A stretch of DNA of 64,000 nucleotides from Escherichia phage PECP20, in sequence record OQ873415.1. One strand, written 5' to 3'. The notes beneath the pieces were generated by a model. It was given only the letters and a program-made list of their open reading frames with translations, searched no databases and had not been told where the DNA came from. Positions 1,316-55,768 of this stretch are shown in pieces (within the stretch, counting starts at the first letter, position 1; each line of letters starts with the position of its first letter). The position numbers were made by a program, and so were the translations under genes.

Positions 1316-2176
1316 TTATACCGCCATTTTAGCTTTGATAGCTGGATGTGATTCGTAATTTTTAAGAATGAAATCACTCGGATTCATATGCTCTGTTACC
1401 CAATGAAGCTGTAATGTCGTGCTCCAATCAGAGAATCCTTCAGGCCAATCAATTTTAAGTTCACACAGTTCTTTAGGCTCACGACGAAGAACTTCTTTGC
1501 ATTGCTCAACATGGTTGCTGTAGATATGCGTGTTGCCGCCTGAGAACACTAAATCACCTGGGATAAGATTACACATCTTAGCCACAATATGCGTCAAGGC
1601 AGCGTACGAGGCAATGTTGAACGGCAGGCCCAAGAAAACATCTACACTGCGTTGATACCATTGTAAATCAAGATGTCCATTACGCACATTAAATTGATAG
1701 AACATATGACAAGGAGGAAGAGCCATTTGGTCAATTTCGGCAGGGTTCCAGGCAGAAACAATTTGACGACGATCAGTTGGTAATTTTTTAATACGGTCGA
1801 TTGTTTCAACTAATTGGTCCACACCACCGAAATCACGCCATTGTTTACCATATATAGGACCAAGTTCACCACTATGATAACCAAGGTCTTTTGCCTGATT
1901 TTCGTAATTATCGTCCCAAATAGTTTTACCTTCAATTAGACTACCATGAGTACGAAGACGTAATTCATTAACATTAGTAGAACCGGACATGAACCACAGT
2001 AACTCGGCAATACAAGCTTTCCATGCTAATTTCTTAGTTGTTACTGCAGGGAATCCTTTAGTCAGGTCCCAACGTAATTTAGTTCCGAACAGGGCAATTG
2101 TTCCTGTGCCTGTACGGTCGTCTGTTTCGTAGCCATTTTCTAGGATATCATTAATCAGGTATTGGTATTGTTTCAT
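1316..2176 (-). CDS. td: Thymidylate synthase, uninterrupted reading frame
   Basis: 286 aa; ThyA motifs (LPPCH-type active-site Cys region, QRSVDVFLGLPFN, DRRQIVSAWNP); same size as spliced T4 td product; ATGA overlap with frd. Confidence 0.95.
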   Translation of the reverse strand: MKQYQYLINDILENGYETDDRTGTGTIALFGTKLRWDLTKGFPAVTTKKLAWKACIAELLWFMSGSTNVNELRLRTHGSLIEGKTIWDDNYENQAKDLGYHSGELGPIYGKQWRDFGGVDQLVETIDRIKKLPTDRRQIVSAWNPAEIDQMALPPCHMFYQFNVRNGHLDLQWYQRSVDVFLGLPFNIASYAALTHIVAKMCNLIPGDLVFSGGNTHIYSNHVEQCKEVLRREPKELCELKIDWPEGFSDWSTTLQLHWVTEHMNPSDFILKNYESHPAIKAKMAV

Positions 2177-2760
2177 TTATATACGCTCTCAGTAATTTCG
2201 GTGAGTTCATCGATTCTGTAGTAATGAGATTCTACCATAGAACGTTGAAGCATAATATCTTGGATGAAATCTTTATCAAGTTGAACATCGGAATTAACAC
2301 GACATTTCTTAATGATTTTAGTCATCACAATTTCATCGGCATAAGGCAGTGCTTGTTTTAATAAGGCAGGACCGCCGATAACAGATACATCAACATGTTC
2401 AGTAGAAAGTTTAAACGGTACGTCTGTTGAAGGGCTGAACAAGTTAATTTCACTACCAGTCACCAGGGTAATAAATTCTGCTTGGGTGATATAGAACCGT
2501 GCAAGTTCATCAGTTTTAGTCCTAGGCAGTTTTCTGGCCATATCAGTGACAACCACATGAGTACGATCTGGTAGTAGACGAGGTAATGATGCAAAAGTCT
2601 TAGCACCCATAACCAATACAGTGTTTTTAGTGCGAGCAACAAAGTTACTCATATCTTGTTTGATATGCTTCCATGGAAGTCCATCACCTAATCCAAAAGC
2701 ATATTCCAGTTTATCATCAACTGTTTTAGATGGTGCGCATGCGAATACTAATTTAAGCAT
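2173..2760 (-). CDS. frd: Dihydrofolate reductase
   Basis: 195 aa, T4 frd-sized, located between td and gene 32 as in T4; DHFR-like N-terminus (GLGDGLPW). Confidence 0.85.
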   Translation of the reverse strand: MLKLVFACAPSKTVDDKLEYAFGLGDGLPWKHIKQDMSNFVARTKNTVLVMGAKTFASLPRLLPDRTHVVVTDMARKLPRTKTDELARFYITQAEFITLVTGSEINLFSPSTDVPFKLSTEHVDVSVIGGPALLKQALPYADEIVMTKIIKKCRVNSDVQLDKDFIQDIMLQRSMVESHYYRIDELTEITESVYK

Positions 2761-15852: not shown

Positions 15853-16632
15853 ATGGCAGTAGTAGGAATCCCTGGTTGGATTGGGACTTCAGCCGTTGCT
15901 GAAACGGGACAAAGATGGATGACGGCTGCTTCAAGGGAACTTCGTTTAGGAAACCCTTCATGGATGTCCCAATTCGCGGGCCGTTCAAGAGAAATAATTC
16001 ACACACTTGGAGCAGACCATAACTTCAACGGTCAATGGTTCCGAGATAGATGTTTTGAGGCAGGTAGTGCACCTATAGTGTTTAATATCACCGGAAATTT
16101 GGTATCATATAGTAAAGATGTTCCATTATTCTTTATGTATGGCGATACGCCAAATGAATATGTTACTTTGAATATTCATGGTGGAGTTCATATGTGGGGA
16201 CGAGGTGGTAACGGTACTGTAAACGGAAACCCAGGCACTAATGGTGGCGATGTAATCCAAAATGATATCGGCGGAAGACTTCGTATTTGGAACTATGGTG
16301 TTATTGCATCAGGCGGTGGCGGAGGTGGTGCAGTGTCATTACAGAATAGCTGGGCGCCAAATGCTACAGCAGGTGGCGGTGGTGGTAGACCATTTGGCAT
16401 CGGCGGAGGTGGAGTTAATTGGCCGGGTGGTAATGCTAGTTATGACGCCCCGGGCGGGGCCGGTTACACTTCCCAATTCGGCGGAGGCAATGGCGGTGAT
16501 GCTGGAGGTCGTGGCGGAGATGGATGGGGTAATCACTTATCTAGATCTGGCGGTGGTGCTCCTGGCAGAGCAGTATTCGGAAGTTCACCGTCATGGGGTG
16601 CTACAGGCACAATCTACGGCTCCTGGATTTAA
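15853..16632 (+). CDS. 38: Tail fibre adhesin gp38, T2-type with glycine-rich motifs
   Basis: 259 aa; conserved N-terminus [11 protein letters not shown]...[46 protein letters not shown] followed by poly-Gly motifs and C-terminal GSWI, as recalled for T2/T6 gp38. Confidence 0.85.
16192..16560 (+). repeat. Glycine-rich motif region of gp38 adhesin (poly-GGN/GGT codon runs)
   Basis: Protein segments [36 protein letters not shown] separated by short variable segments. Confidence 0.8.
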
Positions 16633-16677: not shown

Positions 16678-17337
16678 ATGGCAGCACCAAAAGTATCATT
16701 TTCGCCTAGTGATATTTTATTTGGGTTGCTAGACCGCATTTTCAAAGATAACGCCTCTGGAAATATTCTTATTTCAAGAGTTGCTGTTGTAGTTCTTTTG
16801 TTCCTAATGGCACTAATATGGTACAAAGGGAATATTTTTATGGATTATTACGTGAGGTCGAAATATGATACTTACACAGAAGTAATTCAAAAAGAAAGAA
16901 ATACACGATTTGAATCTGCGGCTTTAGAACAACTACAAATAGTCCACGTCACATCAAGGGCGGATTTTAGTTCGGTGTATTCTTTCAGACCTAAAAATCT
17001 AAATTATTTCGTCGACCTTATTGCGTATGAAGGTAAGTTACCTAGCACAGTAACTGAAAAATCTATGGGAGGATTTCCTGTTGATAAAACGACAGCAGAA
17101 TATTCGGTCCATTTAAGTGGACTTCACTTTACTTCTAAAACAGATTTTGCTTTCTTACCTACCAAATCAAAAACTCCGGAACTGGCGTATATGTATAGTT
17201 GTCCTTACTTCAATTTGGATAACATATATGCGGGAACTGTTTCTATGTATTGGTATAAGGGATCGGATGTGCTAAATGAAGAACGCTTGGCTGCAATATG
17301 CAACCAAGCAGCAAGGATATTAGGGCGGGCTAAATAA
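16678..17337 (+). CDS. t: Holin T
   Basis: ATG at 16678 gives 219 codons beginning MAAPKVSFSPSDILFGLLDRIFKDN, near-identical to T4 holin N-terminus as recalled; single TMD; late promoter at 16651-16658. Confidence 0.9.
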   Translation: MAAPKVSFSPSDILFGLLDRIFKDNASGNILISRVAVVVLLFLMALIWYKGNIFMDYYVRSKYDTYTEVIQKERNTRFESAALEQLQIVHVTSRADFSSVYSFRPKNLNYFVDLIAYEGKLPSTVTEKSMGGFPVDKTTAEYSVHLSGLHFTSKTDFAFLPTKSKTPELAYMYSCPYFNLDNIYAGTVSMYWYKGSDVLNEERLAAICNQAARILGRAK

Positions 17338-17610
17338 TTAGTTGTTAGAATACATCGTCAAATGGCGATAAATATTTTCAAAACCTTCATTGAATTCACT
17401 AATCAGTGTTTTCTTTTCTTCGGCAGTTAAATTTGTAATTAGTTTTCTGAACGAATTCTGATTTAGCTGCCGACCATCTTTTTTAATTCCAATCTCATTC
17501 AAGAATCCGATGAAATTTGCTCGGTCTTCAACAATATCTTCCCTAGAGAATTTAATCAAAATAGAAGCAATAGTAATAATTTCACGTACGATTTCAATGT
17601 CTTTATTCAT
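17338..17610 (-). CDS. asiA: Anti-sigma70 factor AsiA
   Basis: 90 aa; MNKDIEIVREIITIASILIKFSREDIVEDRANFIGFLNEIG matches T4 AsiA closely. Confidence 0.9.
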   Translation of the reverse strand: MNKDIEIVREIITIASILIKFSREDIVEDRANFIGFLNEIGIKKDGRQLNQNSFRKLITNLTAEEKKTLISEFNEGFENIYRHLTMYSNN

Positions 17611-17656
17611 AACGTTTTATTCATTCCACTTAATTGTTAGGAGTATAGTACCATTA

Positions 17657-40341: not shown

Positions 40342-40578
40342 TTAACCACTTACTGGTGTAGGGGTAAACATTGCAGCGTTCTTAGTACGCCAATCTGCTG
40401 CGTCAGTCACCACAGTAGTGTAAGCAGCTTTTTCAGACGGGAAAGTCTGATAATGAGAATCTGCAATCCGATGTTCGTTTGAATAAATCTCAAACGGAAC
40501 AGAAACTTCCATACCTTTAACTTCTTTGCCTTCACCAGCAGGATGCGTAAAGGTTTTGATGTTTACATAACCACCCAT
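40342..40578 (-). CDS. soc: Small outer capsid protein Soc
   Basis: 78 aa; GYVNIKTF ... HYQTFPSEKAAYTTV matches T4 Soc as recalled. Confidence 0.8.
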   Translation of the reverse strand: MGGYVNIKTFTHPAGEGKEVKGMEVSVPFEIYSNEHRIADSHYQTFPSEKAAYTTVVTDAADWRTKNAAMFTPTPVSG

Positions 40579-40623
40579 AATTAACTCCTTTGTTGTTTAA
40601 TTACAGGTGTATTTATAACTTAA

Positions 40624-41145
40624 TTAGTAACCATTATCCTGACGTTCAAAGTTGTGTTGGTTTTTCAAGTAGTAAAGTTTAAAGATTTCTTCAGCAGAAA
40701 GACCAAGACCTTGGAACATATTTAGAACGAAATGCAGAATATCAATCATTTCAAATTTAATTTCAAGCTGGTCTTCAGGAGACAGTTCATCGATACGACG
40801 ATTTCGATATTCAGCATGTTGTGCTTTCCATGGCTTCCATACACTGCTAGCGGCTTTTTCACCATTGCTCATACCACCAAGTGAAGTCAGCAGTTCACGG
40901 AATTCATCATCAATATAATCTTTCTGATTACGCAGCCAATCAACAACATCACCAGCAGTAGCCAATTCATCAGGATGTTTGTTATGTTCAGGCTTGTCAT
41001 TTGCCAGACGAACCTGTAAAGATTTCTGCATATCAAGCATTACCTGCAGTGGGTCTTTATCTTCGTGAATCAGAGCATTAAAATAAGCTTCTTCTGCTTT
41101 ATCAACACCAGAAATAAGTTGTGAACATTCATTAAAGTGCGCCAT
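40624..41145 (-). CDS. 56: dCTP/dUTP pyrophosphatase gp56 (MazG-like)
   Basis: ATG at 41145 with SD AAAGGAAAAATA upstream gives 173 aa (T4 gp56 171 aa); MazG-type E-rich motifs. Confidence 0.8.
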   Translation of the reverse strand: MAHFNECSQLISGVDKAEEAYFNALIHEDKDPLQVMLDMQKSLQVRLANDKPEHNKHPDELATAGDVVDWLRNQKDYIDDEFRELLTSLGGMSNGEKAASSVWKPWKAQHAEYRNRRIDELSPEDQLEIKFEMIDILHFVLNMFQGLGLSAEEIFKLYYLKNQHNFERQDNGY

Positions 41146-41233
41146 TATTTTTCCTTTCAATTCAGTATAAGAGAGTTAATTCTAACATTAATTTTATAAA
41201 GCGTAATAAATAATAGGTAACTAAGGAGATATT

Positions 41234-41431
41234 ATGTTTAAACTTCCATCGTTAATCAACGCTATTAAAGGCAATAAAAAGAAAACTGCTATCGCCGCAA
41301 TAGTTGTAGGTGGCATTATTTCATGGAACTTCGGGATTGCACCATTGTTAGTTGCCCATGGTATTATAGTTCCTTCTGTTCCATTGGATACTGTAGTTGA
41401 TTTGGCCTTTGCTATTATAGGGCTTGTTTAA
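41234..41431 (+). CDS. small membrane protein (65 aa) on opposite strand between genes 56 and 61
   Basis: Strong SD TAAGGAG 7 nt upstream of ATG; two hydrophobic segments; no minus-strand ORF of comparable size in this gap. Confidence 0.4.
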   Translation: MFKLPSLINAIKGNKKKTAIAAIVVGGIISWNFGIAPLLVAHGIIVPSVPLDTVVDLAFAIIGLV

Positions 41432-42450
41432 ATCTTCGAATAACGAGATAATCTCATTTTAGCATGCAACCCACTTGAAATATTCTGTTTCATATATTCT
41501 AAAATTTCTTGTGGTGTTGCATTTTCTTTCATTACCATATCATTCACATCCTTTGAACTCCATGGAGCTCGGTCCCAGAACATAACACGTTCGCCTGCAT
41601 CTACTAATCGCTTCATACGAGCTATAGTATCCGGATGCCTAGGTTCATTATCCATCACCCATACCCGACGTTCTTTAAATGGTACCACATCTAAATCTAT
41701 TGAACCGCCTGTAATAGCGATTGCATTGGGTATGAATAAACTATCAATAGGGCCTTCCATTACCCAGACGTCTCCTTCCTTAACACGTTCAACACCATAA
41801 ATTTTTGTTGCAGACTCAAACGCTTTAATAGTTATATATTTCTGAGGAGCATCTTTGCGAAGTGCACGTCCTTGAAATGACTCAGCCTTCCCGTCTTTAT
41901 TAAAAATAGGAATCACTAAACGCGGTTCTGGAATCTCTTTCTTATACGTGCCTGGTTGAATCTTGTTGACCAATTTAGGCCATTCTAATGTGAACCATAA
42001 TCTGTTCCACGATTCTTTAGGAATACACCGAGACTTAACATATTTCACAATAGGATGCTCTTCAGGCAACTTGTCCAGACGAGAACAAGACGGCAAAGAA
42101 TTTATAGTCTTTTTCTCCGGTTCTGGTTTATGTTCAGGAACCTTTTCAATCTTTGGTTCCATTCTAGCTTTTTCTTTACGAACTTCCATTAGATATTCAC
42201 GATAAAGCTCTTCGTCATACTCTTTTAAGTATCCGGAAATCGTATTATGATATTGACAGTTATAGCAATGCACATTACCTGGAGTACCGCCATAATACCA
42301 TCCGCGGGCTTTCATTGCATCTGTCTGAGAGTCGCCACAAACTGGACAACGAAACGTTAATTTAAATGTGCTTGAATTATTGATTTGTCTAAAACGAGGT
42401 AGGTGAGAAAACGCACGATAAGCAAATTCATTATCTATCCATTCAGCCAT
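41428..42450 (-). CDS. 61: DNA primase gp61
   Basis: 340 aa (T4 gp61 342 aa); N-terminal zinc ribbon CPVCGDS...CYNC and TOPRIM region. Confidence 0.9.
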   Translation of the reverse strand: MAEWIDNEFAYRAFSHLPRFRQINNSSTFKLTFRCPVCGDSQTDAMKARGWYYGGTPGNVHCYNCQYHNTISGYLKEYDEELYREYLMEVRKEKARMEPKIEKVPEHKPEPEKKTINSLPSCSRLDKLPEEHPIVKYVKSRCIPKESWNRLWFTLEWPKLVNKIQPGTYKKEIPEPRLVIPIFNKDGKAESFQGRALRKDAPQKYITIKAFESATKIYGVERVKEGDVWVMEGPIDSLFIPNAIAITGGSIDLDVVPFKERRVWVMDNEPRHPDTIARMKRLVDAGERVMFWDRAPWSSKDVNDMVMKENATPQEILEYMKQNISSGLHAKMRLSRYSKI

Positions 42451-49218: not shown

Positions 49219-49767
49219 TTAACGAGCCCATTTGATGATTTCTGTAATCAAACCATTACGTTCGCTTGCATTAAATCCTATAATTTTGTTAGCACCATCA
49301 TGATTAAGTAATTGATACGTTTGGATTTTGTTATGAATTGCAAACTCTTCAAAATGTGAAATGACTGTATTAAAACCGAATGAAGACAAAGTAATAAGGT
49401 CGTCTTCAAAACTTTCAGTCATTTCATTACGTGTTAAAATAATTGTGAACACATCATGGTTTTGGCAAAGACGAACATAGTCCTGTTCATAAACATCAAG
49501 AACAGAGTCCGCATCTTGCCGAATACGTCCATAAACCCAGTTACTAATATATCCACGGTCTAACAGATAAATCTTAGTAGGGTCTAAATAATTCAACATC
49601 GTTTCGAAACAGCCAACTTCATTTCGAGACTTAACATCGAAACGTCCATCAACTGTTCGTTTAGGAAAATCAATCTTTACATATCTTTCACTAATTTCCA
49701 TTATGTCATTAATGAAAGTTGTTTTACCAGCATTATCTGGGCCGTCTACTAAAATAATTTTAGCCAT
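49219..49767 (-). CDS. P-loop kinase-like protein (unknown substrate)
   Basis: 182 aa; Walker A GPDNAGKTT at residues 9-17; size and layout of small nucleoside/nucleotide or sugar kinases; not a T4 gene at this locus. Confidence 0.5.
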   Translation of the reverse strand: MAKIILVDGPDNAGKTTFINDIMEISERYVKIDFPKRTVDGRFDVKSRNEVGCFETMLNYLDPTKIYLLDRGYISNWVYGRIRQDADSVLDVYEQDYVRLCQNHDVFTIILTRNEMTESFEDDLITLSSFGFNTVISHFEEFAIHNKIQTYQLLNHDGANKIIGFNASERNGLITEIIKWAR

Positions 49768-49768
49768 T

Positions 49769-50668
49769 TTATTCCTCGATTACGACATCTTCGTATTTAG
49801 GTATATTATATGGTGAAGAAATTAAAGCATTAAAGTAGATGAACTCACCAAGACCTGGATGGAATACTTCTTCAGGATTTTCGAAATATTGAATCTTCGG
49901 GCGTCCTTTAAGAATTTGATAGTACTCAGTTTTAGTTGGTTTAAAAATTCGAATCAGCGCTTCTTCAGGATACTTATTTCTGTCGAAGCTATTATTTGGA
50001 TCGGTTATATAAAGCGGTTGACCTAATTGAATTGCACATTCAACCACTTGTTCAAAACGATAACATGGGTCACTAATTCGAAATGGATGAAAAATACCAT
50101 CTAGATGAATAGGAGCCAAATCACCTACAAGACGCTGCATGATGGAAGGACGTATAACTTTCTGAGTTACGATAATCTTATTACCATCTGCACCTGCGTT
50201 AACCAGCACTTCTTTTTGACGTTCATTCAACACGGTAGTTTGAAGTGAACGATTAACTGACAACATATCGGTTTTTAAGAATTCGTCAATATAAAAACGT
50301 TGTTTATTAGGGTCTGCAGTGATATTGAAATTGAATTCTACATCAAAAGCGCCGCCATAACCAGTGATATCTGTGATTAGAAAATCACAATCATAATAAT
50401 CAATTAATGAATCAACCACAAATTCATTTTCAGTCCAGAAATATTTACGAGTGTTATACGCGTTATCTTTATACCATAATGGAACAAACTTAAATTCTGG
50501 GAAAAGACGTTCGCATTCTTTAATATCAGATGCATTACGTGGATATGTAATCACATCACCCGGATTAGCACGGTGCAAATGAAGTTGGAAGTTGCCATCC
50601 TTAAGGATAGCATACTGTCCAGTTTCATAAGACCGCATACTCAAGATTGGTACGCGGAAAATAGCCAT
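49769..50668 (-). CDS. hypothetical protein occupying T4 beta-gt locus (possible transferase)
   Basis: 299 aa; no confident motif (a DCD tripeptide after a hydrophobic stretch could be a DxD); translationally coupled to flanking genes. Confidence 0.45.
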   Translation of the reverse strand: MAIFRVPILSMRSYETGQYAILKDGNFQLHLHRANPGDVITYPRNASDIKECERLFPEFKFVPLWYKDNAYNTRKYFWTENEFVVDSLIDYYDCDFLITDITGYGGAFDVEFNFNITADPNKQRFYIDEFLKTDMLSVNRSLQTTVLNERQKEVLVNAGADGNKIIVTQKVIRPSIMQRLVGDLAPIHLDGIFHPFRISDPCYRFEQVVECAIQLGQPLYITDPNNSFDRNKYPEEALIRIFKPTKTEYYQILKGRPKIQYFENPEEVFHPGLGEFIYFNALISSPYNIPKYEDVVIEE

Positions 50669-51384
50669 TAGTCAAGGAATCCTTTAACATAATCAAAATC
50701 ACGTTCAAACACATGGGCGCTTACCATGGTATGAGTATAATCACCAACTTCTACACCGCATTCGTTAGCGATATAATGAAGTAATTTTCCTTGGAGATAA
50801 AAATCCAACTGCATAACAACAGCACAGTTCTGAGAACGCATATGACAGTGGGTATAAAGCTTACCATCACGAATATAATAAGTTACTGAGTCAGTACATG
50901 GATATTCAAGTGTTTCGTCCGAATCAAGCAAAGCCTGATCAGAACTTTCTAGAATTTGGAACACAACTCTTCGAGAGTTAGGTTTTTCTTTAAGTTCTTT
51001 TAGAAGAGTTGGTAATTGGGCCGCAATGCGAGGGCCATAGAAAGTGTTGAAGTTCGCCGGCAAAACATCTGATTTTGGTTTAGAAATAAATTTAGCGACA
51101 TTAGGATATGCCTTAAACGCTTCTTCTGCGTTGGTACCACCAGAAATCATAAACTTCCAGAAGTCTTCGGCATATTCATAAGAGATGCGGTTAATACGTG
51201 GGTCGGTCATTTTGAATGATGATGGAGTGTCAACAACTACTGTCATAGACCCAATTTCATTACAACGTCCAATACGAGAATCAGTTACGAATTCGGGGTT
51301 TTCTAAAATTTCACGATTGACTGCTTTAAATGCGGTTTGAAAATCTGCGGCTTTGATATATTTCATTGTGTTATGTTTTCCCAT
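50668..51384 (-). CDS. 42: Thymidylate-synthase-fold pyrimidine hydroxymethylase, gp42-like (dCMP hydroxymethylase)
   Basis: 238 aa; motifs NSRR, PCTDS (catalytic Cys), MRSQN and C-terminal SAHVFERDF parallel T4 gp42 NPDSRRG / MCTNT / MRSND / SLHVYSRHF as recalled. Confidence 0.6.
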   Translation of the reverse strand: MGKHNTMKYIKAADFQTAFKAVNREILENPEFVTDSRIGRCNEIGSMTVVVDTPSSFKMTDPRINRISYEYAEDFWKFMISGGTNAEEAFKAYPNVAKFISKPKSDVLPANFNTFYGPRIAAQLPTLLKELKEKPNSRRVVFQILESSDQALLDSDETLEYPCTDSVTYYIRDGKLYTHCHMRSQNCAVVMQLDFYLQGKLLHYIANECGVEVGDYTHTMVSAHVFERDFDYVKGFLD

Positions 51385-51426
51385 GTTTACCTCAATACAA
51401 TTTATTATATACTCAATTCATAAAGC

Positions 51427-51666
51427 TTATTTGAATTTCTTGACAATGTTGATATAACGTAAAGCTTCAGAATCTATACTTCCAAGAACACTATGAAGGA
51501 ATGCATCAGTGTAGTATTCCAATTGAACAGGTTCTTTAATCACTTTAGCCGCTTTGGTTTCAAACAGGCCCATAAGGGCCTTTTTAAGAATTTGTTCGTT
51601 AGTGTTCAGTTTCATAGTCAAAATCTCTTCGTTAAGTTTATAATTAAAACTTTTTCTAGAAATCAT
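51427..51666 (-). CDS. hypothetical small protein
   Basis: 79-aa ORF, coupled to upstream gene (ATGA-type overlap). Confidence 0.35.
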   Translation of the reverse strand: MISRKSFNYKLNEEILTMKLNTNEQILKKALMGLFETKAAKVIKEPVQLEYYTDAFLHSVLGSIDSEALRYINIVKKFK

Positions 51667-52823
51667 TCCGGGTACCTCAAAGCGTCATCAGAGTTAGTTA
51701 TATCAATAATAGATATGGAGTTTTCTGCTAACCCGTTTTTAGATAATTGACGTTTATAATACCTTTCACAATATGTACACGTTGACCCACAGATTTCATT
51801 AGCACAATCAAAATCTGGATGTCTGAACCACCTTTTTTCTAAAAAGCCATCTAACAAAGAGGTTTCAATATTTACTGTATGTGAAAACTCAGTCTCATTT
51901 TCAAGAGTGAAAATAGTCTCTAAAGGCTTCCACAGTTCTAACAAATTACCTTCAAACTTTTCAGAAGCGTATGCTTCAAGAACTTTCAAAATGTAGTCTG
52001 TGCTACCTGTACGTCCTGAAACTTTGAATTGAGTGATACCAATATCATTATAAAGTTTCAAATCTTGAGGACGAACAAAACGAGTTCTCAACCAGTTAAA
52101 TGGGTCTGTATCACGAGCTTTAATACAGTGCTGCATAGGATATCCATTTAAGGATTTAGCATCATCAGCGGTAACATCAGTACTATGGAAAATATAGCAA
52201 GAGTCACGATAACTACAATGTGTTGTATACCCTTTACCAGCATTAGAACAGAACTCATTTACAAGAACTTCAAATATTATATTGTTCTTATTGCAAAACT
52301 CTGCTGCACGCTTCAGGAAAGAAACTGAACGGTTCTTATGAATTCCGCAACAGACCTTTTTGATGTTATATTGGTCATGTAAGTATTTGATTTGAGTTAC
52401 CGCATCGACATGTAGAATTGTTGAAACTTCAATCTCAATATCTTTATTGACTTCACGAACAATTTCCATAACAACAGGGTTAGCGATAGTAATACGCCAT
52501 ACGCCTATTGACCAAAGATACTGAACATAATCCTGAATAGCTTTCTTCTTCCACTCAACTAGTTCTCTTTTTGAACCAGGATTTATCGTGTTGAGTGTAT
52601 AGTTAAAGCAAATACCTAATTCGTTACAACGTTTAACGTAGTCTTCTAACATCTTTTTGTCAACGTCAGGAAGCCTAAAATCAGGTCTGGCTGCTACAAA
52701 AGCCATTTCTCTTGTAGAGCCATATACTTCGTTTATCAAGCTATTAGGATAGGTTTTATTGAGCTCTACGATTTTATCAAGAAGAGCTAAATCAAAATTC
52801 GTTCCGATTTTAAAAGTATTCAT
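51663..52823 (-). CDS. Cys-rich putative metalloenzyme (possible Fe-S enzyme, U32-like?)
   Basis: 386 aa; many Cys including C-terminal CANEICGSTCTYC (C-x4-C-x3-C-x2-C) and HCSYRDSC resembling the U32 signature CxSYxxxC; assignment speculative. Confidence 0.45.
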   Translation of the reverse strand: MNTFKIGTNFDLALLDKIVELNKTYPNSLINEVYGSTREMAFVAARPDFRLPDVDKKMLEDYVKRCNELGICFNYTLNTINPGSKRELVEWKKKAIQDYVQYLWSIGVWRITIANPVVMEIVREVNKDIEIEVSTILHVDAVTQIKYLHDQYNIKKVCCGIHKNRSVSFLKRAAEFCNKNNIIFEVLVNEFCSNAGKGYTTHCSYRDSCYIFHSTDVTADDAKSLNGYPMQHCIKARDTDPFNWLRTRFVRPQDLKLYNDIGITQFKVSGRTGSTDYILKVLEAYASEKFEGNLLELWKPLETIFTLENETEFSHTVNIETSLLDGFLEKRWFRHPDFDCANEICGSTCTYCERYYKRQLSKNGLAENSISIIDITNSDDALRYPE

Positions 52824-52879
52824 TTTTTTGCATCTCGCGTTAATTGATGCGATGGTTTTTGCAGGTCTTACTTAAATTA

Positions 52880-53281
52880 TTATAGATTTGGTTTATATGA
52901 TTTAAATGTTTCGAATTCGCCTTTATTCATAAGAGCTTTGAATTCGTCAGGACGCATAGCTTTGTCGTCGATAATCCAATCATATACTGGTTTATGTGTT
53001 AGCAAATTATGGTACTTCAAACCAATGTTTTCCAAGTTCTGAATCAGACTTGGGAGAATGTCAATTGCTATACGACCAGGACCTACCGACTTCATACCAC
53101 GGGCAGTGTAAAGCGTTATGGTATGCCCTGCATCATACAGGGCATTAATGGCAGACACCATTTCGACGTCTGGTTTGAAGTTCACGTAATCACGATTGTT
53201 ATTCCACTCTGTTATACAATCATCGACATCAAAACAAAGATTAAGCATGTTTTCTACACGGTGCATTAGATTCGTTCCCAT
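52880..53281 (-). CDS. putative HAD-superfamily phosphatase-like protein
   Basis: 133 aa; N-terminal FDVDDC (DxDx motif I-like) followed by TLYTARG; weak. Confidence 0.4.
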   Translation of the reverse strand: MGTNLMHRVENMLNLCFDVDDCITEWNNNRDYVNFKPDVEMVSAINALYDAGHTITLYTARGMKSVGPGRIAIDILPSLIQNLENIGLKYHNLLTHKPVYDWIIDDKAMRPDEFKALMNKGEFETFKSYKPNL

Positions 53282-54951
53282 TGATGAGTGATATCGCCGC
53301 CGATTGGACGATAGGAAACACCAGTTTCTTTATCAGTTAGTACCCATTTACCAGGATTTTTTGTAATCAGAGTAGCCGTTACAGGTTCTGCTACGTCATA
53401 ACTAATAGAGCCGTCTTGAAGTACACGGCCCATGTTACGTAATTGCTTAGTCAGAAGTTCCATACCTTTATAATATGCGGCAACCGCTTTAAGTGGATTA
53501 TTCTTGAAATAACCACCTAATGCAATCCAGATAATTGCTACTGCCAAATGATGATACTCGTTAAACGAACTCATCTTTCCATATTTGTAAACTAATGGAT
53601 TGATGTTAATAGTCAAATTACAAGTTGTTTCATCAATAGTAAACTGACCCCAGGTCGGATTAGCATTGAATTCATCATAACCTGAAACAGCATAAAGCAC
53701 TTTAGCTTCATCATACAATTTTGGCCCGTAAATCTTGGTTTCACCAAAATATCCACGAGGGTCGATAAACTTGACTTCGCCGTTATCGGTAATCATAGTA
53801 TTACTGAAGTTCGGGTCACCATGAATAACAGAGTACTGTCCCTGAGAACGGTTATGATAACGAATAAGATGTTCTAAAGCTTGTTTCAACATTGGCTTCA
53901 GACGTCCAATCTTAGTGTAGTTCACATGTGTGATTTTACCAAATGAATCAATCAATGGCTGAATGCTTTCACAACGATCAATAACTTTCGTATAGAACTC
54001 TTTAGTGAAATCACGGCGAACAGTTTCAGGACTTACAAAATAAGTGTCCGTGCTGAATTTCAGTGCATCTAAAATTGCATCAACAATTTGTGGACGAGCA
54101 AGACTTGATTTGGATTTAATATATTCAAATGCCGGCTTACCTTTAATACGTTCCATTTCAAAATTATTTTCATTTACCGAAACTAACTGAGGAACTGAAT
54201 CTGATTTCACTTTCAAATACCATGAAATCTCATCTTTTTGAAGAGCTCGACCTTGTTCGGTTAACGCGAATTTAGTTACAGTTTCTTCGCCAATTTCAAC
54301 TGCATTAAAACTACGATTCAGTTCACGAACTTCATGAGCCTTTTCAAGTTTAGGCATATCACCTAAATCAATTAGATTCATAAGCTCTGATTTATTGAAT
54401 GCACTGCCGTAAAGGAATTCTACGAAATCACGACCTTTGCAGTATTCGTGAATTTCCTCATCAGTAGAACCCATGTAGAATTCCCAGTCTTTGAACTGAT
54501 AAATTCCTACAACATTACCACCTGTTGAACCTACGTTAGTGATATTTTCACCATCGAAATTATATCGACATTCATCACCCTTAACATAGATTGCGTTAAC
54601 ATTCCAAGACCATGAACCAAAGTCAGGAATAATATCACACCAGTTAACAATTACGTTATGGCCATCTAAATCTTTGTATAATTTAGCAAGAGCATAAGCA
54701 GAACCATACGCTTCATCAACTGTACGAATAGTCACATTGAACCCTTCTTGCTCGCAATAAGCTCGAACAGTTTCAGCAAATTTTGAATGAACTACTACAA
54801 TAATTTCATCTGCGCCAAGGTCAGAATAAATTGTATACAAATTGCTCAGAATAGTGTCTTGTTTATAGTTAACAAGCACCTTAGGAATATGGTGAGTAAT
54901 TGGATATAAACGAGTTGCTAATCCAGCACCAAGAATAACAGCTTTTTTCAT
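53266..54951 (-). CDS. Bifunctional sugar-1-phosphate nucleotidyltransferase (N-term) / APH-like anomeric sugar kinase (C-term)
   Basis: 561 aa; N-terminal MKKAVILGAGLATRLYPIT (G-x-G-T-R-L nucleotidyltransferase motif); C-terminal VIHGDPNFSNTMITDNGEVKFIDPRGYFG (HxDxxxxN catalytic loop plus IDxR of choline-kinase/APH fold). Confidence 0.6.
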   Translation of the reverse strand: MKKAVILGAGLATRLYPITHHIPKVLVNYKQDTILSNLYTIYSDLGADEIIVVVHSKFAETVRAYCEQEGFNVTIRTVDEAYGSAYALAKLYKDLDGHNVIVNWCDIIPDFGSWSWNVNAIYVKGDECRYNFDGENITNVGSTGGNVVGIYQFKDWEFYMGSTDEEIHEYCKGRDFVEFLYGSAFNKSELMNLIDLGDMPKLEKAHEVRELNRSFNAVEIGEETVTKFALTEQGRALQKDEISWYLKVKSDSVPQLVSVNENNFEMERIKGKPAFEYIKSKSSLARPQIVDAILDALKFSTDTYFVSPETVRRDFTKEFYTKVIDRCESIQPLIDSFGKITHVNYTKIGRLKPMLKQALEHLIRYHNRSQGQYSVIHGDPNFSNTMITDNGEVKFIDPRGYFGETKIYGPKLYDEAKVLYAVSGYDEFNANPTWGQFTIDETTCNLTININPLVYKYGKMSSFNEYHHLAVAIIWIALGGYFKNNPLKAVAAYYKGMELLTKQLRNMGRVLQDGSISYDVAEPVTATLITKNPGKWVLTDKETGVSYRPIGGDITHQWERI

Positions 54952-54992
54952 GTTGAAGTCCTCATTGGTAAGTAGGTGTATTGTACACTATT

Positions 54993-55136
54993 CTAGTTAA
55001 AGCATTCATACTTTGCCTGTAGACCAATCATAATCCATCCAATTACAAGTGTTGGAATCATTACTGGAGCCGTTAAGCCCCAGTAGATAGTCATGGCAAG
55101 CATCAATAGTAAAAGTCCTATTGTTATTGCTTTCAT
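54993..55136 (-). CDS. small hydrophobic protein (47 aa)
   Basis: Hand-translated: MKAITIGLLLLMLAMTIYWGLTAPVMIPTLVIGWIMIGLQAKYECFN; ATG overlaps stop of SIS gene; possible Imm-like membrane peptide. Confidence 0.3.
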   Translation of the reverse strand: MKAITIGLLLLMLAMTIYWGLTAPVMIPTLVIGWIMIGLQAKYECFN

Positions 55137-55768
55137 TGTTCGCCTCGTAACATGGCACCTAGTGCACCACCAGGGTGGAACTTAAGGAAGTCATTAGAGG
55201 TAAATCCACGTTCAGACGAAAGGTTGATAGCAAACGTATCGATAAGCGCTAACAACAATGTAGTGGACATGGTCGGAGCCAGAGAATTCTCATCAACCTC
55301 TACCGCGATGCCTGTACAGAACGTATAATCAAAAAGAGCTTCGTATTCTTGCGGAATGTCAGGGTTACAATGTAACAGAATCTGTTTAACCTGAGGACGA
55401 ATCATACGAAGATGTTTAGCAACACCTATCATTTCTTCAGTCTTACCAGAACGACTGATGTGAACTAATACATCATTAGGTGCAATAAATCCTGCGTCGC
55501 CATGAGAATAATGCCCGGTGTTCAAATACATGCTAGGAATACCTAGTGAAGCAAAAGTCTCGGAAGCTTTAGTTGCGATATTAGCGTTCTTACCAACACC
55601 TGTAATAATTACTCGGCTTTCATAATTACTCAGTCCAGGGCGACGAAGAGTTTCAAGAATAGCATTATATCGGGCAGAGTTTTGACTAATTACTTTAGCC
55701 ATAGTGGCAAGAGATGAAGCTTGTTTTACGATTGCGTCAATAGCGATAGTGATTGGTGTAGTTTTCAT
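55133..55768 (-). CDS. SIS-domain sugar-phosphate isomerase (arabinose-5-phosphate isomerase KdsD/GutQ-like, no CBS domains)
   Basis: 211 aa; ITGVGKNANIA...HGDAGFIAPNDVLVHISRSGKTEE...APTMSTTLLLALIDTF...FLKFHPGGALG parallels the KdsD SIS domain motifs as recalled. Confidence 0.65.
   Translation of the reverse strand: MKTTPITIAIDAIVKQASSLATMAKVISQNSARYNAILETLRRPGLSNYESRVIITGVGKNANIATKASETFASLGIPSMYLNTGHYSHGDAGFIAPNDVLVHISRSGKTEEMIGVAKHLRMIRPQVKQILLHCNPDIPQEYEALFDYTFCTGIAVEVDENSLAPTMSTTLLLALIDTFAINLSSERGFTSNDFLKFHPGGALGAMLRGEQ

Follow-up and report, generated by a model that had tools for sequence, protein, structure and literature searches.

A conserved gene for a predicted small membrane protein adjoins an empty dam slot between genes 56 and 61 of a Mosigvirus phage

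In phage T4, the DNA adenine methylase gene dam is located between genes 56 and 61 (NC_000866, dam at 16846-17625 on the minus strand), as the original prediction for the present locus had rightly stated. The corresponding locus of Escherichia phage PECP20, analyzed here in a stretch of 64,000 nucleotides of record OQ873415.1 (referred to as the window), raises the question of whether dam was lost in this phage, whether a small open reading frame (ORF) stands in its place, and whether the absence of dam is associated with a different DNA modification regime. Briefly, the gap between genes 56 and 61 extends over 282 bp (41146-41427), and its sole substantial ORF is a 65-codon frame with an ATG start (41234-41431, plus strand), preceded at a distance of 5 nt by the Shine-Dalgarno sequence tAAGGAG (41222-41228, plus strand). 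A gap of approximately 280 bp containing one 65-codon ORF on the opposite strand, a strong Shine-Dalgarno sequence, and no dam had been described previously, and its coordinates and content were found as described. On one side of the gap are located gene 56, encoding the dCTP pyrophosphatase (dCTPase, MAHFNEC...; 40624-41145, minus strand) and orthologous to T4 gene 56, and the late gene soc, encoding the small outer capsid protein (40342-40578, minus strand), which is annotated as such in phages CAU_ECP01 and RB69. On the other side is located gene 61, encoding the DNA primase (41428-42450, minus strand), with a matching annotation in the same two phages. The small ORF and gene 61 are convergent, and their TAA stop codons share the four nucleotides TTAA (41428-41431). 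Furthermore, the small ORF is the lone plus-strand gene amid approximately 77 minus-strand genes (counted from the annotation of the near-identical CAU_ECP01) that extend from approximately 17.3 kb to the end of the window. The explanation that we favor, with considerable confidence, is that the window represents a Mosigvirus with an empty dam slot and no Dam of its own, in which the small ORF is an independent conserved gene.

The window is derived from a Mosigvirus, i.e., an RB69-like T-even phage, as indicated by its nucleotide identity and collinearity with RB69-like genomes together with an RB69-type DNA modification cluster. The 2.3-kb locus is 100% identical to that of Escherichia phage CAU_ECP01 and 95-99% identical to that of 153 further records, including the Mosigvirus phages ATK47 and phiE142, and the small ORF itself is 100% identical in Mosigvirus APCEc01. 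In RB69, the type species of Mosigvirus, the layout of gene 56, the small ORF, and gene 61 matches that of the window. CAU_ECP01 is the closest complete relative (98.6% identity to the window over 61 kb) and served as a proxy for the complete genome, approximately 105 kb of the actual genome being located outside the window. The window appears mosaic: identity to CAU_ECP01 drops to 95% within its first 3 kb, vs. 98.6% in the rest, and the matches of its first 25 kb in the phage collection are only 95-97% identical. Phage OLB35 (MH992122.1, 14979-17623) contains approximately 344 additional bp somewhere within the span from soc to gene 61.

The absence of Dam was examined through similarity, motifs, and annotation. 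The tblastn search with T4 Dam that the original prediction had proposed, performed against the window and the whole CAU_ECP01 genome, yielded nothing better than E = 0.5, whereas T4 Dam against T4, used as the positive control, yielded E = 8e-177. Among the 142 stop-to-stop frames of at least 80 amino acids in the window, none combines the (D/N/S)PP(Y/F/W/H) motif with AdoMet motif I (FxGxG-like), the former motif being absent from all of them. In CAU_ECP01, two short frames with NPP[WY] are present and motif I is missing from both, and no methyltransferase entry is found in the annotation of this genome. Considering the window and CAU_ECP01 together, a phage-encoded Dam is very improbable.

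Gene 56 and the small ORF are separated by a cargo slot whose content varies and which is empty in the window. This slot contains dam in T4, dam and an ORF of 181 amino acids in T2, a gene of 97 amino acids annotated as mazG-like in KLB31 (Kanagawavirus), and an ORF of a size similar to that of the mazG-like gene in CkP1. It is empty in T6, RB69, the window, SP18, JS98, and JD18, i.e., in RB69-like phages, T6, Gaprivervirus, Dhakavirus, and Jiaodavirus. On comparison of T4 and T6, a clean replacement is seen, with approximately 900 bp in T4 vs. approximately 20 bp in T6, and an inspection of the indel boundaries for short repeats revealed only an ambiguous AATTATA. The T2 ORF (1856-2401 of the extracted locus, minus strand) is mislabeled as a "head outer capsid protein" and has no family match in a Pfam and NCBIfam scan. 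The KLB31 ORF is located at 2153-2446 (minus strand) of its extracted locus and has no Pfam match, and the CkP1 ORF is located at 1672-1977 (minus strand). T4-type Dam (at least 90% identity) is found in only approximately 182 phage records vs. 692 with the small ORF, 533 of which carry a copy less than 60% identical to that of the window and are thus not Mosigvirus. Because of this difference in distribution, dam is regarded as an accessory gene even among close relatives of T4, and the dam-less state may well have come first. Of the original proposal of a loss of dam, the absence is thus borne out by tblastn and motifs, whereas the loss is not, the slot being without dam in six of the seven genera examined and a search of the 88-bp spacer of the gap having revealed no dam remnant.

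Is the absence of dam then related to DNA modification? Beside the DNA polymerase gene, the window contains an RB69-type cytosine arabinosylation cluster (49769-55768, minus strand). Its minus-strand genes include a thymidylate-synthase-family gene (50668-51384), a Peptidase_U32 gene (51663-52823), an NTP-transferase gene (53266-54951), and a SIS-domain protein gene (55133-55768), which match RB69ORF048c, RB69ORF050c, RB69ORF053c, and RB69ORF055c, respectively; the cluster ORFs at 49219-49767, 49769-50668, and 52880-53281 have no Pfam match. These four genes belong to the arabinosyl-cytosine modification that is on record for Mosigvirus phages, RB69 among them (PMC6024577; PMC13390438). The phage DNA would be protected by cytosine hypermodification through this cluster, and its GATC sites are five-fold depleted: 36 sites are observed in the window vs. 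217 expected (0.17), and the observed/expected ratio is 0.20 in the CAU_ECP01 genome, 0.31 in T4 (50 kb), and 0.34-0.39 in T6 (50 kb and whole genome, the latter at 0.39), other 4-nt palindromes ranging from 0.76 to 1.22. GATC depletion was tested as a correlate of a missing dam and does not follow it, as the depletion is common to phages with and without dam.

The first alternative explanation is that this lineage lost dam as a result of switching its cytosine modification from glucosyl-hmC to the arabinosyl type. The RB69-type cluster in place of the T4 glucosyltransferases, the failure to find Dam in the window and CAU_ECP01, and the somewhat lower GATC frequency than in T4 or T6 would agree with such a switch; however, T6 retains its glucosyltransferases (alpha-gt and ggt) and gene 42, and yet its slot is without dam and no Dam homologue is found in its whole genome (168,706 bp). 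The slots of SP18, JS98, and JD18 are empty as well, and the restriction of T4-type Dam to few records, the remnant-free spacer, and the sharing of GATC depletion by dam-carrying and dam-less phages likewise argue against it, such that we regard a loss by switching as improbable. Because the glucosylating phage T6 is without dam in its entire genome, the absence of dam is independent of modification chemistry and is no marker of the arabinosyl system. The suggestion that a loss of Dam would fit a different modification regime is therefore upheld as to the regime, the arabinosylation cluster being present, and not as to its link with dam, for which T6 is the counterexample. With the empty slot of a Mosigvirus as the favored reading, the small ORF has to be considered in its own right.

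The original prediction presented the small ORF as being there instead of dam. This does not hold, since T4 and T2 have the same ORF beside dam: the T4 orthologue is located at NC_000866 17738-17938 (plus strand), between dam and gene 61. The small ORF is an independent conserved gene of Tevenvirinae and no dam substitute. It matches phrog_2024 with E = 1.9e-27, residues 1-65 being aligned with all 65 profile positions, and is 54-56% identical to the copies of T4, T2, and T6; by tblastn, its family is found in the 692 phage records mentioned above. Orthologues are named dam.1 in T6 (AXN58073), RB69ORF029w in RB69 (NP_861719), and RB32ORF030w in the RB14 record. The T4 RefSeq record contains no CDS for its 66-codon orthologue, which many other T4-like records annotate. 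On the plus strand and convergent with the primase gene, the small ORF is found in seven genera, i.e., Mosigvirus, Tequatrovirus, Gaprivervirus (SP18 and TH41), Dhakavirus (JS98, a distant copy), Jiaodavirus (JD18), Kanagawavirus (KLB31), and Karamvirus (CkP1, the genus being the label in its own record). The 4-nt stop overlap TTAA is also present in T4, T6, T2, RB69, JS98, KLB31, and CkP1, and is replaced by a short spacer in SP18 and JD18. In SP18, this spacer between the small ORF and gene 61 comprises approximately 108 bp, and the locus contains two tandem soc genes, soca and socb (1391-1856 of the extracted locus).

The family is considered small because an exhaustive profile search among 1.84 billion representative proteins yielded only 10 clusters, all belonging to the small-ORF family and all unnamed; within the phage collection, it is seen only in Tevenvirinae of enterobacterial hosts. 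A word-indexed protein search with the small ORF retrieved nothing beyond close relatives, and a search for paralogues in the CAU_ECP01 and T6 genomes revealed none, the gene being present as a single copy in each. In T6 (2492-2692 of the extracted locus), ATT replaces the start codon ATG of T4 and T2, and the annotated start is an internal ATG at least 21 nt from the Shine-Dalgarno sequence; either ATT serves as the start codon in T6 or translation of this copy is weak. A literature search on dam.1, on ribosome profiling of T4 small ORFs, and on T6 and Dam yielded nothing usable.

A 65-codon ORF is by length alone not beyond chance in AT-rich DNA, and several spurious ORFs of the same size are found in the window; the small ORF is taken as a real gene because it is conserved, and not because of its length. 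Over 65 aligned codons, the small ORF differs from that of T4 at 31, 12, and 42 first, second, and third codon positions, respectively, and dN/dS is 0.04 vs. RB69 and 0.15-0.4 between genera; as judged from these alignments, selection on the small ORF is purifying and its changes are those of a coding sequence. A length of 60-69 amino acids, the start codon, and the Shine-Dalgarno sequence are retained across the family at saturated synonymous sites, and an (A)GGAG(G) element is found in the matching position in all homologues. The family alignment contains 18 invariant columns, including W31, N32, F33, P37, G43, P47, and D56, and distant members with 23-35% identity retain the pattern W-N-[FYL]...P.A...G..LP...[LI]E. 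The common architecture comprises a basic N-terminus, a transmembrane (TM) helix with W-N-[FYL], the elements P..A..[HY]G and P, and an acidic C-terminal helix.

By prediction, the small ORF product crosses the inner membrane once. Its Kyte-Doolittle hydropathy is high from residue ~19 onward, and an AlphaFold model based on the family alignment comprises three helices (residues 4-13, 15-41, and 51-61; mean pLDDT of 80). There are five lysines ahead of the TM helix and two aspartates behind it. Following the positive-inside rule, the basic flank of a TM helix is cytoplasmic, and because the lysines precede the helix, an N-in, C-out topology is suggested. The 7-kDa product would thus be inserted in the inner membrane through one TM helix at residues ~19-41; its N-terminus, rich in lysine, would face the cytoplasm, and its short C-terminal helix, which is acidic, the periplasm. 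For RB69ORF029w, a TM segment has been predicted at residues 21-41, with no signal peptide (Nolan 2006, Additional file 2). Annotation of the small ORF already exists in RB69 and T6, and its TM segment is already published. The invariant asparagine of W-N-F, midway along the TM helix, might point to helices associating with one another, and the product might, speculatively, act late in infection as an oligomer or as the partner of another membrane protein. That it works at the envelope, be it in the timing of lysis, in superinfection, or in assembly at the membrane, is a guess that we would put forward with low confidence. Searches with the small ORF yielded no match in Pfam or NCBIfam and a single family without an assigned function in PHROGs, and a fold search against viral structures retrieved family members only.

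The second alternative explanation is that the small ORF encodes a holin or another lysis protein, as might be suggested by a homologue in vB_EcoM_OE5505 that is named "Holin" in UniRef and BFVD and by a small, membrane-embedded product with a TM helix and probably late expression. However, this name stems from annotation, and no evidence behind it was found; the charged tail is missing from the C-terminus (...DLAFAIIGLV), and the basic cluster is N-terminal instead. Furthermore, the gene is flanked by dCTPase and primase genes and not by endolysin or spanin genes, a T-type holin of 219 amino acids is already present at approximately 16.7 kb of the window and annotated in CAU_ECP01, which also contains rI and rIII, and no holin family is matched in Pfam, PHROGs, or NCBIfam. 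Hence, a function as a holin appears very unlikely.

Returning to the small ORF as an independent conserved gene, its expression is rather likely to be late and gp55-dependent, judging from the elements upstream of it. A putative gp55-type late promoter, AATAAATA, is located at 41205-41212 (plus strand), with a predicted transcription start near 41218-41219, and the small ORF would be transcribed late from this promoter of its own. The motif NATAAATA is found just upstream of the Shine-Dalgarno sequence in all but one of nine lineages, the exception being CkP1 with ATTAAATA; the variable base of NATAAATA is A in the window, RB69, T6, and JS98, G in T4 and T2, and C in SP18, TH41, JD18, and KLB31. 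The canonical T at -13 is absent from the motif in all lineages, and in RB69 the T at -13 has been reported to be poorly conserved, with A or T being common there (Nolan 2006). In CAU_ECP01, 5 of the 14 AATAAATA sites precede by 8-60 nt a Shine-Dalgarno sequence that is followed by a start codon and an ORF, the background rate being 3.3%; besides the site of the small ORF, these are the sites in front of inh, e, rI, and gp15. For TATAAATA, this was the case for 15 of 28 sites, with the same background. A canonical TATAAATA precedes the soc ATG by 31 nt (40610-40617, minus strand). Four of the five TATAAATA sites in the window precede late genes, namely those which their position and size mark as gp34, gp36, holin t, and soc, and the heptamer ATAAATA is depleted in the window, with 10 sites vs. 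approximately 37 expected from base composition on both strands.

Late genes of T4-like phages are typically in opposite orientation to early genes (Nolan 2006), and the small ORF runs against the early and middle genes. Against a late promoter, so little space separates the nearest NATAAATA from the Shine-Dalgarno sequence in JD18 and KLB31 that a transcription start 6 nt downstream would truncate the latter, and the published HMM scans gave neither a late nor an early promoter call upstream of RB69ORF029w (Nolan 2006). A middle promoter of the MotA type is predicted for gene 56 at 41171-41211 on the minus strand (ttaCGCTTTA, 12 nt, TAGAAT), and the strong middle promoter call Pm:16038 of RB69 (15998-16038, minus strand, score 21.6; Nolan 2006, Additional file 4) maps to the same positions of the window. 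This promoter and AATAAATA overlap back to back within 41171-41212. The motif NATAAATA could be retained only as an A/T-rich upstream part of the gene 56 middle promoter; in T4, however, dam separates this promoter from the small ORF, and yet GATAAATA still adjoins the latter. A scan for sigma-70 promoters and terminators near the small ORF revealed neither a plus-strand promoter nor a terminator. In JD18, a GGGGC-TTCG-GCCCC hairpin is located between the stop codons of the small ORF and the primase gene (2697-2710 of the extracted locus); its UUCG tetraloop is read only on the strand of the small ORF, which suggests an mRNA 3′ end or stabilizer. A search for a similar hairpin at the window locus revealed none.

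The least likely alternative is that no protein is made from the small ORF, the locus being a late antisense unit or a signal at the 3′ end of the primase mRNA with an incidental frame: plus-strand transcription would run antisense into gene 61 with no terminator found downstream, the stop codons overlap in a conserved TTAA, and the published HMM scans of RB69 provide no late or early promoter for RB69ORF029w (Nolan 2006), but the codon-position pattern, dN/dS well below 1 across genera, the retention of length, Shine-Dalgarno sequence, and start codon despite synonymous saturation, and the amino-acid motifs retained in members with 23-35% identity make this highly improbable.

These observations correct the initial view in two respects, in that dam is not replaced by the small ORF and arabinosyl modification cannot be read from a missing dam. 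Furthermore, dam occupies a cargo slot whose content differs between T-even phages, and a conserved 66-codon gene is missing from the T4 RefSeq record. A broader reading, which is possible although we hold it only tentatively, is that the dam.1/RB69ORF029w family is a late, oligomerizing inner-membrane protein, restricted to Tevenvirinae and near-universal in the genera examined, with an unrecognized envelope role, for example in timing lysis, in controlling superinfection, or in head or replication assembly at the membrane. If this is true, the convergent coupling with the primase gene might allow late transcription to run antisense into genes 61 and 41.

Regarding known systems, T4 Dam (NP_049647), a GATC-specific N6-adenine DNA methyltransferase of group alpha, has no homologue in the window or CAU_ECP01, which likewise provide no DPPY motif and no motif I, and it is relevant to the window only as the occupant of the neighboring slot in T4 and T2. 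Class II holins, pinholins, and the T4 proteins Imm, Ac, and RI resemble the small ORF product in their size of approximately 7 kDa and their hydrophobic helix, and holins and RI additionally share its probable late expression; however, none of them has sequence or profile similarity to it, their genomic context is different, and the small ORF product differs from them in its one full-length TM helix and in charges that are N-terminal rather than C-terminal. By contrast, T6 dam.1, the T4 ORF, and RB32ORF030w are orthologous to the small ORF, with stop codons overlapping that of gene 61, the same Shine-Dalgarno sequence, and an upstream NATAAATA; T6 matches the window exactly in its dam-less arrangement of gene 56, dam.1, and gene 61, whereas T4 and T2 differ in having dam between gene 56 and the small ORF. 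The closest likeness is that to RB69ORF029w, which has the same position between genes 56 and 61, the same strand, 65 amino acids, and 98.5% identity, with no dam at the RB69 locus either and an upstream region that is identical over 70 nt (41164-41233); the two copies differ by one amino-acid change (I62V) and seven synonymous changes. The arrangement of gene 56, the small ORF, and gene 61 without dam is hence a known and ordinary one for RB69-like phages and T6, and the genome record of RB69 has contained it since the early 2000s.
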